Shown here: positions 5,188 to 43,713 of the stretch, one piece after another
Layout of the letters: each line of letters opens with the position of its first letter
Position numbering within the stretch: position 1 is the stretch's first letter
Source: a virus
Lineage: Duplodnaviria > Caudoviricetes
Reading direction: 5' to 3' (one strand)
DNA: 44,441 nucleotides
Virus record (IMG/VR): IMGVR_UViG_3300040733_000128
Coordinates: 1 to 44,441 of that record
The notes under the pieces: model-generated
Told to the model about the DNA's origin: nothing
Databases searched by the model: none
What the model saw: only the letters and a program-made list of their open reading frames with translations
Translations under genes and position numbers: made by a program

Positions 5188-5428
5188 ATCTCCTATCCGC
5201 CTTTTTTTCGCTATTTCCCATTTTGGTTGCAGGGGCCGGAATTGAACCGGCGACATCCGGAGTATGAGCCCGGTACGCTGCCTCTGCGTCACCCTGCGAC
5301 AATTTTCCTCGGTCGGCTTTTAATATTTTATTCACTCTCCGGCGGGCGCCATCGTATGCTCCCGTGATATCGAGTATCACCAGGGCAGCCACGATGCACG
5401 CGATGATCACCGGCGTGATGAATTCCAT
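5174..5428 (-). CDS. Small membrane protein whose ORF spans the tRNA-Met gene
   Basis: RBS GGAGAAGGA; ATG overlaps the dnaN stop; hydrophobic N-terminus. Confidence 0.45.
   Translation of the reverse strand: MEFITPVIIACIVAALVILDITGAYDGARRRVNKILKADRGKLSQGDAEAAYRAHTPDVAGSIPAPATKMGNSEKKADRRYERP
5224..5298 (-). tRNA. tRNA-Met(CAT), initiator-like
   Basis: 75-nt cloverleaf CGCAGGG-TG-ACGC/GCGT-CCGGG CTCATAC TCCGG-GCCGG TTCAATT CCGGC-CCCTGCA-ACCA; C1:A72 mismatch; encoded CCA. Confidence 0.92.
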
Positions 5429-34111: not shown

Positions 34112-35401
34112 TCACCAGATTATTTTGCTGTTATTGAGGACTATTTCTTCAACCCCGATATATCCAACATATCGCTCGACGATGACGTCGCAGTAGGCCG
34201 GTGATAGTTCCATCAGGCGGCAGCGGCGAAAGAGTTGCTCACAGGCGATGAGGGTACTTCCGGATCCTCCGAAGGGATCGCAGACGATATCGTTGATGTT
34301 TGACATGAGGCGGATCGCGCGGGATGGCAGGGCCACCGGGAAGCAGGCGAGGTGGTTACCGAGCTGCACCTTTTCCGTGCTCGTATTAATGTGCCAGCAA
34401 TTCGTGACCCCTTTCCCTGTACGCTTATTGAACCAGGCCCTTTTGCTGGTGGTGCTGATGCAGAACAGTTCGAGCTCCTGGTGGATCGATTCCTCATCAC
34501 CGGTAAGAAGGATATCCTCATATTGTCGCGTAAGGGCATCGCTGGTGACGATAGGAAGCCCGTGACCTTTATCCCAGAGGATGAGTTCGAGGAACGTGAG
34601 ACCAGTCTCTTTGACTATCCTGTACATGATTTCAATAAATTCCCAGCGGGAGTTCTTGTTGTAGCTGATATTCCAGAAGAGGTACCCTTTCAGGTATCGC
34701 TGCCAGGCGGTGACCACGCGGAGATTGAAGTCGATATATTCGGTACTTTTCATGTTGTCGGAATATTCCTTGTACATGCCTCCTGCCATGTTGTAGGGGG
34801 GCGATGTGAAGATGAGCTTCGCCACGTCGTGGCTCATGAGGTGGGAGATATCATCCGGGTTTGTCGCGTCCCCGCAGAGGAGGCGATGGGGGCCCAGCTC
34901 GTAGAGATCTCCCGGGCGGGTCCTGGGATCCTGAGGAGGTTCCGGGATCGCGTCCGCATCGGTGAGACCTTTCTTGACGTCGAGGGCAAGGATCTCCTCG
35001 ATCTCGGGCATATCAAAACCCGTTAGCGTCAGGTCGATATCGGTGAATTGAGCGAGGCGCTCGAGGATCGCCTGAAGGTTCTTTTCATCCCATGTACCAG
35101 ATATCCTGTTAAGCGCGAGCCCGAGGATCGTTGCTTTTTCTTTCGAGAGGTTCACTTCAATGCAGGGGATGTTATCTATTTTGAGATCCCTGCACGCCCT
35201 GGTCCTCTGGACGCCGTCTATGACGGTCATGTCATGATTGATGATTACGGGTGCTGGAATCCCGTATTCCTCGATGATTCTTTTCAGTTTGTCATATTCA
35301 ATGAGGTGCATCCGGCGTGGATGCCCTTTTTCGATGGTGAGGTTTTTAACAGGTACCGTCCTGTACTTAAAGAGTACCGGCTGTTTGTTCTCATTCTCCA
35401 T
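34112..35401 (-). CDS. ParB-like domain + DNA methyltransferase (SPPY, likely m4C)
   Basis: VIDGVQR, LALNRISG; FTSPPY; DPFGGSG. Confidence 0.9.
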   Translation of the reverse strand: MENENKQPVLFKYRTVPVKNLTIEKGHPRRMHLIEYDKLKRIIEEYGIPAPVIINHDMTVIDGVQRTRACRDLKIDNIPCIEVNLSKEKATILGLALNRISGTWDEKNLQAILERLAQFTDIDLTLTGFDMPEIEEILALDVKKGLTDADAIPEPPQDPRTRPGDLYELGPHRLLCGDATNPDDISHLMSHDVAKLIFTSPPYNMAGGMYKEYSDNMKSTEYIDFNLRVVTAWQRYLKGYLFWNISYNKNSRWEFIEIMYRIVKETGLTFLELILWDKGHGLPIVTSDALTRQYEDILLTGDEESIHQELELFCISTTSKRAWFNKRTGKGVTNCWHINTSTEKVQLGNHLACFPVALPSRAIRLMSNINDIVCDPFGGSGSTLIACEQLFRRCRLMELSPAYCDVIVERYVGYIGVEEIVLNNSKIIW

Positions 35402-36854
35402 GGAGTGGCCTCCATTCCACGGCACTGCCGTTGAGAGTGATCTCTTTATTACCGGAGGTTCGGACATATCTGTCCACTATGACATCGCAATAGTCGGGCG
35501 TGAGCTCTGTGCCGAAGCAGATCCTTCCTGTGAGTTCGGCCGCGATGAGCGTGGTCCCCGATCCCAGGAATCCGTCATAGACGATATCGCCGGGGAGGCT
35601 GCTGTTCTCGAGGGCCCGGCGCGCAAGCGCCACCGGCTTCTGCGTCGGATGATCGCCGGTATCGTCCCGGCCTATCTCCCATAGATCGTCAGCCCTGTCG
35701 TTGCTCGAGATGAAGATTGTTTGCCCTGGGAGGACCCTCATCGTTCGTACCTTTTTCCCGTTCGGCGCCTTCGGCTCCAGGTAGATCCTTCCTCCGGATC
35801 CGTCAATGAGCACGAGGCCTGTGCCGAGGATAGCCGATGTGCGCTTCGCCGCCTGGATCGTTGCCCGCCATACCGTCGATTGCGAGCGGTCCCCGTAGAA
35901 TGCCGGGACTTTTCCTTCTTTGCTAGCATAGAAACATGGCTCATGCGCCCAGCGGTAGTCGCTATGGCCGAGGATGAATCCCGGCTTTGCCCAGATGATA
36001 TACTGCCTCTCGAGGAGGCCTGCGGCCTTAAGCGCAAAAGAAAAATCTTCGCGCGTGCTCGAGGCATGCCATATGTAGAAGCCAGCATTCGGGAGCGTGA
36101 AGGCGACGGCGACCTTCAGCGCCGGCAGGAGAAGGTTGTTGACCAGGTCGTCCTCTGTCCTGTCGTCGTTGACGATCATGTCGAAGTTCCCTGAAGGCGC
36201 GACGTAGCTCACGCCATAGGGCGGATCCGTGAAGACACATGCCGCGCGTTCCTCGCCGAAGAGGAGGCGGGCTGCCTCGAGGCTTGTTGCATCGCCGCAG
36301 AGGAGGCGGTGGGGGCCCAGCTCGTAGAGATCTCCCGGGCGGGTGCGGGGATCCCCTGGAGGTTCAGGGGCCTCGTCAACGTCCAGGTCCGTGTCCCCGG
36401 CATCGCCGGTGGTCTGCAGGTATTCATCGAGCTTGAAATCCGGGAGGTTGATCTCGAGGGATAGCGCGGGGATATCAAGATTGTTCGCCTGGGCGAAGCT
36501 ATCGAGGCCGCCCTCCGTGATATTCGCATAGATCGACGAATAGAGGAGTACCATGCGGGCGGCATCCGCGCGGTTTTTACACTGGATGAAATTCGCCGGC
36601 AGAAGGTCCGGTATTTCGTATCCTTCCTTCTCGAGAACCTGCATTGCCTTCATGCGGTACTGGCCGTCGAGAATGAGGACCGTGCGGCCGAGCTGCCATA
36701 CATTGAAGGGCTGGACGAAGTTATTCGATACGAGGGATTGTTTCAGTTTTTCGAGTGATTCCCCGGGGAGCTTCTTCAGGTCCGTGTGAAACCACTTGAG
36801 TTCTCTCCAAGATATTAAAGCGGTCTTGATGATGCGGTTCGATATTGTTTTCAA
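35391..36854 (-). CDS. ParB-like domain + DNA methyltransferase (DPPY, likely m6A)
   Basis: ILDGQYR; FTDPPY; HPTQKP; DGFLGSG; TTG start 6 nt after AAGGGAGG. Confidence 0.9.
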   Translation of the reverse strand: MKTISNRIIKTALISWRELKWFHTDLKKLPGESLEKLKQSLVSNNFVQPFNVWQLGRTVLILDGQYRMKAMQVLEKEGYEIPDLLPANFIQCKNRADAARMVLLYSSIYANITEGGLDSFAQANNLDIPALSLEINLPDFKLDEYLQTTGDAGDTDLDVDEAPEPPGDPRTRPGDLYELGPHRLLCGDATSLEAARLLFGEERAACVFTDPPYGVSYVAPSGNFDMIVNDDRTEDDLVNNLLLPALKVAVAFTLPNAGFYIWHASSTREDFSFALKAAGLLERQYIIWAKPGFILGHSDYRWAHEPCFYASKEGKVPAFYGDRSQSTVWRATIQAAKRTSAILGTGLVLIDGSGGRIYLEPKAPNGKKVRTMRVLPGQTIFISSNDRADDLWEIGRDDTGDHPTQKPVALARRALENSSLPGDIVYDGFLGSGTTLIAAELTGRICFGTELTPDYCDVIVDRYVRTSGNKEITLNGSAVEWRPLHGE

Positions 36855-37001
36855 GGAGCTCCTCCCTTGACCTGGACGGATCGCCCTGATAGAATCTTGC
36901 GCAGATGCCGGACAAAGGATCTGCGGATGGTAGCGGGCAACCGTCGTCACGTTCTAGCGTGATGGTCTAAGGGAGGTAGGACTCCCTTCGGACTGCCGTC
37001 C
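36855..37001 (-). promoter_or_regulatory. Structured 5' leader with anti-SD switch
   Basis: Closing stem GGACGG/CCGTCC, several internal stems, CCTCCCTT(A)GACC complementary to the SD region GGTCAAGGGAGG. Confidence 0.6.
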
Positions 37002-37025
37002 GTTTTTTTATTTTTTAAGTTCGGG

Positions 37026-37157
37026 TGTTAGCGGGGCAGGCTTTGAGCTGCGTATTTGCCCACACGTGTAGAGGTAGCTACTCTCTACAATGGCGGCTCC
37101 CGATACTAATTAATCTTGACCCCGGCGTGTCAAGCACTCGCCACCTGCCCCATAACA
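37026..37157 (-). ncRNA. Multi-stem structured element, possibly tRNA-derived
   Basis: Outer stem TGTTATGGGGCAGG/CCTGCCCCGCTAACA enclosing CTTGAC/GTCAAG and TGTAGAG/CTCTACA hairpins. Confidence 0.45.
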
Positions 37158-37171
37158 TTTTTACCGTACCT

Positions 37172-37492
37172 TCACTTTTTTGCTAAAACTTCCTCATTTG
37201 ATTCTTTTCTGTACCATTGACCTTTCTTGCCGTCCCAAGTCCACCCTGCATGGAAATACCATTCACTGTCTTTTGTAGAGTATATCCTTCTTTCACCATC
37301 AACCACTTCCTCATACGTTGGGTTAGGAGGGTTATTGTTCGGTGCATGTAAGCAATGCCAATGGTAGAAGGATTCCGGTCCCGTGGAAGACAATATTTCA
37401 TCTTCTCGAATAGGCTTATTACAGAGAGGACAAATCAATTCTCCTTTTTTAATTTTTTCTCTTATTTCATCAATTACCGGATTATTTTCCAT
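37172..37492 (-). CDS. Hypothetical Zn-binding protein
   Basis: CPLC...HWHC; RBS AAGGAG; AT-rich. Confidence 0.65.
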   Translation of the reverse strand: MENNPVIDEIREKIKKGELICPLCNKPIREDEILSSTGPESFYHWHCLHAPNNNPPNPTYEEVVDGERRIYSTKDSEWYFHAGWTWDGKKGQWYRKESNEEVLAKK

Positions 37493-37510
37493 CGTTTCTC
37501 CTTTTATCTT

Positions 37511-37738
37511 TCATGCTAAATATCTCCAGATCCCGTACATGCTGATTGCCGTATATGCCGCGAAGAGCGCGGCCTGCTCGTAATATCCCCGGCGGGCATT
37601 GAGAATGACGAGGCCCACATTCGCGGGTACCCAGATGACAAATCCCCAGATAGATAAATTACTATTGAAGAGCGCACCGGCGAGGCCTGCGGCAGAAAGA
37701 ATGAGATCAGCGAGTTTAATTTTGCTCAACTTCATCAT
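37511..37738 (-). CDS. Small 3-TM protein, PnuC-like
   Basis: WGFVIWVPAN...LFAAY..S.YGIWRY. Confidence 0.6.
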   Translation of the reverse strand: MMKLSKIKLADLILSAAGLAGALFNSNLSIWGFVIWVPANVGLVILNARRGYYEQAALFAAYTAISMYGIWRYLA

Positions 37739-43175: not shown

Positions 43176-43266
43176 CGGAGAGGGTGGGATTCGAACCCAC
43201 GGTACGCGTGTTAGACGTACAGCCGATTTCGAGTCGGCCCCGTTATGACCGCTTCGGTACCTCTCC
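43176..43266 (-). tRNA. tRNA-Ser(CGA), prophage integration site
   Basis: GGAGAGG acceptor, GCCGA-CTCGAAA-TCGGC anticodon arm, long variable arm, GTGGG-TTCGAAT-CCCAC, G discriminator; CCA not encoded. Confidence 0.96.
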
Positions 43267-43713
43267 TTCTCGTTTTGATTGAAAAAATCTTTGCAAGATC
43301 GCCTGGCATTTCTCCTGCATAACACCGCCTTCTACCTCCAGTTTATGGTTCAGAGGCAGCGCGTTCACATCGATGACTGAACCAAAGGCGCCCCGCTTCT
43401 CGTCGTAACACCCGAAGACAACGCGCCTGATCCGCGCTTCAACGATCGCGCCGGCACACATGATGCATGGCTCCATCGAAACGTAGAGGGTGCAGTCTGT
43501 GAGCCGGTAGTTGTTCAGCATATCTGCCGCCATATGGATGGCAAGTATCTCCGCGTGCGAGGTCGGCCTGTTGGAACGGATCGTCAGGTTGTGCGCCTTG
43601 GCGATAACCTTCTTATCCGGTGATGTGATCACGGCGCCGACAGGCACCTCCTCCTCCGTAAATGCCCTCTCGGCCTCTCTCAGGCACATCGCCATGAAAT
43701 GCAGATCATCCAT
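43243..43713 (-). CDS. tadA: tRNA adenosine(34) deaminase (host)
   Basis: EVPVGAV, HAE, EPCIMC motifs. Confidence 0.95.
   Translation of the reverse strand: MDDLHFMAMCLREAERAFTEEEVPVGAVITSPDKKVIAKAHNLTIRSNRPTSHAEILAIHMAADMLNNYRLTDCTLYVSMEPCIMCAGAIVEARIRRVVFGCYDEKRGAFGSVIDVNALPLNHKLEVEGGVMQEKCQAILQRFFQSKREGEVPKRS

Follow-up and report, generated by a model that had tools for sequence, protein, structure and literature searches.

A conserved leader of phage DNA methyltransferase genes with a predicted closed ribosome binding site and a predicted cis-antisense cloverleaf RNA

The window described here is the whole of the viral record IMGVR_UViG_3300040733_000128 (Caudoviricetes; 44,441 nt). Its minus strand carries, in order, a replication gene, a terminase, two DNA methyltransferase genes, a portal and an S49 protease, so that in the window itself the methyltransferase genes sit between terminase and portal. 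One tRNA lies within the record (nt 5227–5298, minus strand), and a second, together with a tadA-like deaminase gene, is found at the right end (nt 43176–43713, minus strand), which is probably host flank; the tadA gene and tRNA at this end suggest that the record is of prophage origin. Methyltransferase 1 (nt 35391–36854, minus strand; 487 aa) has a ParB-like N-terminus and an N6_N4_Mtase domain according to family matches. For methyltransferase 2 (nt 34112–35401, minus strand; probably 429 aa) the probable start codon, ATG 35401, overlaps the final codons of gene 1, and the Shine-Dalgarno (SD) sequence lies within a GGAG-GCCA-CTCC hairpin (nt 35401–35420, minus strand). The overlap and the hairpin suggest that methyltransferase 2 is translationally coupled to gene 1, and a single leader may gate both genes. 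The two enzymes look like orphan methylases. Further upstream is a 75-aa gene (nt 37516–37738, minus strand) with a weak NMN-transporter (PnuC-like) Pfam match, below cut-off; in close relatives this is the gene directly upstream of the leader.

Methyltransferase 1 is preceded by a structured mRNA leader (nt 36852–37003, minus strand), which is conserved in 63 distinct homologues (see below). Its SD, AAGGGAGG (nt 36861–36868, minus strand), serves a TTG start codon (nt 36854–36852). An earlier reading of this stretch, made from the sequence alone (the sequence-only reading), had chosen this TTG and named GTG 36950 as the competing start. Homologue N-termini favour the TTG: the seven closest homologues of methyltransferase 1 start no more than two residues from TTG 36854, and a 32-aa extension, as in the GTG 36950 frame, was seen in none of 38 aligned homologues, which rules out GTG 36950 as the start. 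The 150-nt minus-strand leader folds at -69.3 kcal/mol (z = -5.3), and 0 of 200 shuffles were equally good. Pairing of CCTCCCTT with AAGGGAGG, and of GACC with GGTC, has a probability of 0.97–1.0, i.e. the anti-SD/SD state makes up the ensemble, and the occlusion of the TTG's SD that was central to the sequence-only reading does dominate the predicted fold. The segment responsible, anti-SD 1 (nt 36964–36976, minus strand), was identified from the fold and a swap test, and pairs with nt 36872–36861.

Four other elements of the leader, all on the minus strand, are relevant to its behaviour. Decoy 1 (an anti-anti-SD; nt 36982–36988) is the 5' arm of hairpin H3 and pairs with nt 36975–36969. The variable hairpin H2 (TCACG/CGTGA; nt 36947–36962) has compensatory changes in all five aligned pairs. 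Segment C, or decoy 2 (nt 36932–36945), pairs with segment D (nt 36873–36891) in both fold and swap test, and segment D, which is the spacer of an antisense promoter (see below) read as mRNA, is predicted by folding to become a second anti-SD when C is covered. A conserved stretch at nt 36931–36926 is unpaired in the closed mRNA and paired in the predicted antisense RNA. All complementary segments listed in the sequence-only reading are present, at or within one base of where it placed them, and its stems TCACG and TGCCC (pair probability 0.83–1.0) and GCAGAT (0.98–1.0) form. The junction it drew around them fared less well. The closing helix GGACGG/CCGTCC has a probability of 0, only 5 of the 63 homologues could form all six of its pairs, and in the window CCGTC is partnered by GACGG 36945–36941, not by GGACGG. 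The junction as a whole reaches -56.6 kcal/mol, whereas the best fold containing only the hairpin reaches -62.0 and the MFE is -69.3 kcal/mol; with the SD-to-start region open it gives -50.9 kcal/mol, against -56.3 for the best open fold. The latter contains H3 and a C:D helix, in which GACGG-TTGCCC of segment C pairs with GGGCGA-CCGTC of segment D. The proposed anti-anti-SD hairpin, AAGGGAG/CTCCCTT, has a probability of 0 at equilibrium, but in 58 of 63 homologues it forms in prefixes that stop short of the SD.

The plus strand of the same segment carries a promoter motif and a structured RNA that had been overlooked in the sequence-only reading. A predicted antisense sigma70 promoter, TTGACC-17-TG-n-TAGAAT (nt 36867–36895, plus strand; 10 of 12 plus the TG), would direct synthesis of an antisense RNA of ~108 nt, for which we infer ends at nt 36902 and 37009. 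Its predicted layout is a variable 5' hairpin followed by a cloverleaf (the stem P1, nt 36923–36932 with nt 36994–37003, plus three hairpins) and a U tail. A terminator-like hairpin followed by T7 occupies nt 36989–37009 (plus strand), this short hairpin not being conserved family-wide. The window's predicted antisense RNA folds at -51.8 kcal/mol (z -5.7).

Collection of leader homologues began with protein-based searches, from which three leaders proved informative (L001/L086, L110, and L111 from a Syntrophorhabdaceae MAG). Viral contigs were then scanned with patterns drawn from the motifs conserved among them. There were 81 candidates (77 scan matches and four already known), of which 70 passed a 5' filter. 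Of those it rejected, three were judged genuine and restored by hand; the other eight were discarded as chance matches, and none of them matches the family model at E < 0.01. After identical cores were collapsed, and L132, L178 and L189 left out for want of a usable start codon, 63 members remained. DNA methyltransferases of three different families follow 59 of these 63 leaders. Most are of the D12 class (53 by N-terminal motif and that of L242 by eye), and all five D12 calls tested were confirmed by Pfam, a few of the genes being truncated; ParB-N6_N4 enzymes follow four leaders and a DAM-like-phage1/GNAT fusion one, while four of the 63 downstream genes are without a family match. Of 38 upstream genes tested, 16 matched tail families, i.e. 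the position is at the end of a late operon.

A model built from the 63 members matches 15 of 96 genomes of the order to which L111 belongs. A strict pattern found only one of 401 genomes in a sample of the phylum, and by comparison with the model it is therefore insensitive. A second scan, in which the sequence of P1 was not fixed, gave 57 matches: 50 known members, five new viral leaders, a truncated copy and a chance match. Since the five new members are again methyltransferase leaders with nearly identical P1, the conservation of this stem is not only an effect of the first pattern. Exact-pattern scans returned the closest relative and chance matches only, the loci of distant methyltransferase relatives gave no model match at E < 0.01 except L086, and blastn found nothing in GenBank phages and only short chance matches in plasmids.

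Several family members deserve separate mention. Five solo genome copies (L259, L260, L264, L265 and L266) have no methyltransferase visible just downstream; L264 lies ~280 nt before uvrB, and L259 shows a compensatory change in P1. The strict promoter is absent from L264 and L265, and solo copies may be decayed. A distant copy (L261:1500–1916; 29 bits) precedes a gene whose 99-aa product is hydrophobic at its N-terminus and matches no Pfam family, and L222, which follows a head-closure gene, precedes one for a 72-aa protein. In L254 a deletion just after the core (minus strand) has removed the promoter and segment D, leaving the element and a full D12 methyltransferase.

Pairings within the mRNA were compared in swap tests, in which cognate and swapped partners were scored among the 63 members and among 34 representatives of less than 75% identity. 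By this comparison three pairings covary: anti-SD1:SD (cognate -19.0 vs swapped -14.9 kcal/mol; 0 of 5000 permutations), C:D (-16.5 vs -14.6 kcal/mol; 0 of 5000) and D:SD (-12.3 vs -10.9 kcal/mol; 1 of 5000). Two control pairings showed no cognate advantage (298 and 1936 of 5000 permutations). Covariation between the anti-SD and SD regions, proposed earlier as a check on the leader, is thus present, and the outcome of the swap tests favours a pair of anti-SD segments with a separate decoy for each. Segment D corresponds to promoter spacer and is not part of the antisense RNA, so that the structure of the mRNA accounts for its covariation. The loop of H3 extends the anti-SD1 pairing into the SD-to-start spacer in a subset of members, by at least three bases past the core in 22 of 58 (mean extension 2.3 bases vs 1.1 in permutations). 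The 63-member alignment has two apparent subtypes, one in which the H3 loop pairs with this spacer and another in which the spacer is often GACC, matching segment D instead.

When the full leader is folded, the SD is closed by anti-SD1 in 51/63 members, at a mean opening cost of 11.0 kcal/mol. When the SD is held open, H3 is present in 51/63 folds and C:D in 53/63; similarly, in prefixes ending before the SD, H3 forms in 58/63 and C:D in 50/63. An open ribosome site would thus require both decoys, and it resembles a folding intermediate. Once the part covered by the antisense RNA is taken away, pairing of the D region with the SD appears in 54/63, at an opening cost of 9.3 kcal/mol vs 7.2 for shuffled sequences (higher in 49/63, clearly so in only 18). 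The same removal makes opening cheaper by more than 1 kcal/mol in 35/63 members and costlier in 14.

On the antisense strand the promoter motif TT..-(16-18)-TGn[TC]A occurs in all 63 members, on whose sequences the motif was itself defined; it is found on the sense strand in 3/63 and in 1/59 control segments. Of 19 genome matches inspected, the core could be placed in 14; the motif is carried by 10 of the 12 copies linked to a methyltransferase, some of these being the same phages as in the viral set, and by four of the five new viral leaders. The strict motif is absent from L300 and L253. A conserved methylation site was not found in the promoter region (GATC occurs in only 6/63), and methylation feedback on the promoter is accordingly not supported.

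The predicted antisense RNA spans 86–122 nt before its tail across the members, and at least five of the ten bases after P1 are U in 54/63. The consensus cloverleaf comprises 28 pairs, with 96.7% of cells paired (39–52% in slid controls) and two-sided changes in 12 pairs, values reached by 0–1 of 500 shuffles. Read on the antisense strand, these pairs include 370 G-U cells vs 15 A-C cells, and P1 alone 143 G-U vs 1 A-C of 630 cells, while the MFE of the core is lower on this strand in 63/63. The wobble asymmetry, the better folding of the core and the U-rich tail argue that the cloverleaf is selected on the plus strand. Judged from the alignment, both strands of the cassette are under structural selection, and comparison of the homologues establishes the leader and its link to methyltransferases, as well as the promoter motif and the plus-strand cloverleaf. 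Two hallmarks of cis-antisense control are seen at the level of prediction: a reverse promoter whose transcript would overlap the 5' leader, and a short structured RNA with a U-rich 3' end. A YUNR U-turn in recognition loops is a further feature of such control; it occurs in the H3 loop of 24/63 mRNAs and 14/63 antisense RNAs, counted without a chance control. The sequence of P1 is more conserved than simple antisense pairing requires.

Relative to the close relatives L001, L086 and run X1, the window carries a 520-bp insertion (nt 37010–37529). It includes a 106-aa ORF with a CxxC..HxxC motif, absent from those three relatives and without a Pfam, PHROGs or convincing Atlas match. Directly after the first element is a possible diverged second copy of the cloverleaf, without a promoter of its own (nt 37021–37111, plus strand). 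Model R1 matches it weakly (11.6 bits, E 0.39, the third-best model match in the window), and the order of motifs is that of the cloverleaf. The region nt 37030–37155 folds on both strands, and a CTTGAC/GTCAAG inverted repeat with a minus-strand TTGACA lies at ~37114–37133. No exact match to the second element was found in viral contigs.

When the window and 31 member or match loci were scanned against Rfam 15, at E up to 1–10, only tRNAs or sub-threshold noise resulted, and the SAM-I to VI, SAM-SAH and SAH aptamer models had no match at any of these loci, in line with the earlier statement that no known SAM riboswitch consensus could be recognised. A conserved unpaired core was not found: most invariant columns belong to the P1, H1 and H3 stems or to the promoter, and the loops of the hairpins are variable. 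Among phage RNAs, c4 is excised from the strand that also carries its targets, while the RNA described here is on the opposite strand with its own predicted promoter. As small multi-hairpin phage antisense RNAs, c4 of P1/P7 and the CI RNA of P4 (RF01695) are nevertheless alike to it; the c4 model matched none of five records at E <= 1. The D12-methyl motif (RF02950; a 64-position model) is named for D12-class methyltransferases, the commonest downstream gene here, and gave no match over cut-off in the five records, only three weak matches elsewhere in the contigs. A literature search covering main texts of mostly open-access papers found no description of the cassette. Term searches in the main texts of PMC5737381, PMC10085705, PMC11109978, PMC8632094, PMC2864571 and bioRxiv 10.64898/2026.10.21.760802 gave none either; the motif could be listed in the supplement of PMC5737381 or of another motif catalogue. 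The cassette is a real, conserved regulatory RNA element and apparently an uncatalogued ncRNA family.

The nearest known arrangement in position is com-mom of phage Mu, in which the modification gene ends the late region and its start signals are hidden in mRNA structure (PMC3299994, PMC6483171); related prophages have a DNA adenine methyltransferase in place of mom. The present leaders are likewise predicted to hide the start signals of a DNA-modification gene that closes the late or tail region, tail matches having been obtained for 16 of the 38 genes tested upstream. The long two-decoy leader differs from the short inhibitory hairpin of Mu, and a conserved antisense promoter and cloverleaf RNA are present in addition. 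A Com-like ORF (CxxC..[CH]xxC, <=130 aa, same strand, <=1.5 kb) was found near only one of the 63 leaders, namely the 106-aa ORF of the window. In mechanism, the parallels are rather with 5'-overlapping type I toxin-antitoxin loci such as aapA3/IsoA3 (PMC6733600), symE/SymR and hok/Sok (PMC3874152), where a reverse promoter close to the start codon gives rise to a cis-antisense RNA, there are several anti-SD segments, and metastable folds appear as the RNA is transcribed. The regulated gene is, however, a DNA methyltransferase of 250–490 aa in a phage late operon and not a small toxin, 59/63 of the downstream genes being DNA methyltransferases, and the antisense RNA stops short of the SD. In the EcoRI system the transcript of a DNA methyltransferase is regulated by Rna0 (PMC3874152), an 88-nt antisense RNA that is made from a reverse promoter and is of similar size to the RNA predicted here. 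Rna0 lies inside the endonuclease gene of a restriction-modification system, whereas the present family is intergenic and structured, and precedes orphan-looking methylases. By analogy, the cassette would resemble Mu com-mom in position and role, and would work like a 5'-overlapping antisense system.

On balance we think it probable that this conserved methyltransferase leader, with its ribosome binding site predicted to be closed by default, is locked shut by a small cis-antisense RNA. During late mRNA synthesis, H3 would trap anti-SD1 and segment C would trap D, leaving the SD briefly open, and a coupled ribosome could load in this phase. The mRNA would then refold to the anti-SD1:SD state, which in the window is predicted to be ~13 kcal/mol more stable. 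The antisense RNA, probably made in the lysogen, would pair with the leader and cover both decoys, so that segment D or a local hairpin could close the SD. A long perfect RNA duplex is a likely substrate of RNase III, and the mRNA-antisense duplex would probably be cut; repression may be strengthened further by convergent transcription. Once late mRNA is abundant, it could out-titrate the antisense RNA, giving a capped, late burst of methylase, as Com does for Mu mom.

Repression is the most likely action of the RNA because the open site needs both decoys and the RNA would cover both. It is also favoured by the D:SD pairing that appears in 54/63 leaders once the covered part is removed, still at a cost of 9.3 kcal/mol, by the lack of a Com-like ORF near 62/63, by the position before a methyltransferase (59/63) at the end of a late operon, and by the precedents of IsoA3/aapA3 (PMC6733600) and of SymR and EcoRI Rna0 (PMC3874152). 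Against it, the D:SD lock is modest (9.3 vs 7.2 kcal/mol) and the SD itself lies outside the antisense RNA. The promoter segment is gone from L254, and the strict motif is missing in L300 and L253; P1 is conserved beyond the needs of antisense pairing, and a YUNR motif is present in the H3 loop of only 24/63 mRNAs. The fall in opening cost in 35/63 would also be expected if the RNA were an activator that replaces Com, pairing with anti-SD1 and freeing the ribosome binding site. That possibility, which we regard as unlikely, would explain why the RNA covers anti-SD1 and not the SD, and why the element occupies the position of Mu com (PMC3299994) with a Com-like ORF absent near 62/63. The D region, however, re-pairs with the SD in 54/63 and covaries with it, a constitutive-looking sigma70 promoter would be a poor on-switch for a late, host-harming gene, and the expected RNase III cleavage of a long duplex does not suit activation.

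To a second alternative we attach a similarly low probability: the reverse promoter may act mainly by transcriptional interference, the cloverleaf only terminating or stabilising the transcript, with a phage or host protein opening the leader as Com does in Mu. The promoter is indeed convergent and inside a late operon, reverse promoters repress EcoRI promoters (PMC3874152), and P1 is as unusually conserved as a protein site would be. Three hairpins with covarying stems and variable loops are, on the other hand, more than termination needs, and there is no conserved partner gene, the sole zinc-finger-like ORF (that of the window) being missing from close relatives. A role for the cloverleaf RNA mainly in trans, on the leaders of other phages or on a protein and with methylase adjacency secondary, is very unlikely. 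The P1, H1 and GGGAG sequences are conserved across distant phages, five genome copies have no methyltransferase just downstream, and the window may hold a tandem second copy, but covariation ties the mRNA side to the SD of the gene that it precedes, the loops are not the same from phage to phage, and the solo copies tested (L264, L265) lack the strict promoter and may be decayed. Least probable of all is the metabolite-sensing riboswitch (SAM or SAH) suggested by the sequence-only reading. What stands of that suggestion is an expression platform with exclusive SD states, seen by prediction and covariation, in front of SAM-dependent DNA methyltransferases of three families (59/63). The sensing part does not: no Rfam riboswitch matches, most invariant columns are in helices and the promoter while the loops vary, the wobble asymmetry points to the opposite strand, the junction is not conserved, and there are no SAM-synthesis genes among the downstream genes. 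On present evidence the cassette is probably one of antisense translational control, not a riboswitch, and the best candidate for the trigger is the RNA encoded on the opposite strand.

A wider role can be put forward only tentatively, and we think it unlikely to hold: the 150-nt cassette, found across three methyltransferase families, might be a portable, protein-free replacement for Mu Com that also silences the anti-restriction methylase of an incoming phage. It would then encode a translational gate with two decoys together with a cloverleaf antisense RNA of its own. As the stems of the cassette are conserved across phages, silencing between phages is conceivable, and if it occurs, the RNA of a prophage (or of tandem or solo copies) would expose an incoming phage to host restriction, a form of RNA-based superinfection control. 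Orphan methyltransferases are common in temperate phages and, to our knowledge, Mu com-mom is the main case in which their silencing in lysogens is understood in detail. For phages that have no Com, the leader family offers a concrete, testable, RNA-only answer, in which a single promoter mutation would have opposite outcomes depending on whether the antisense RNA is a repressor or an activator.
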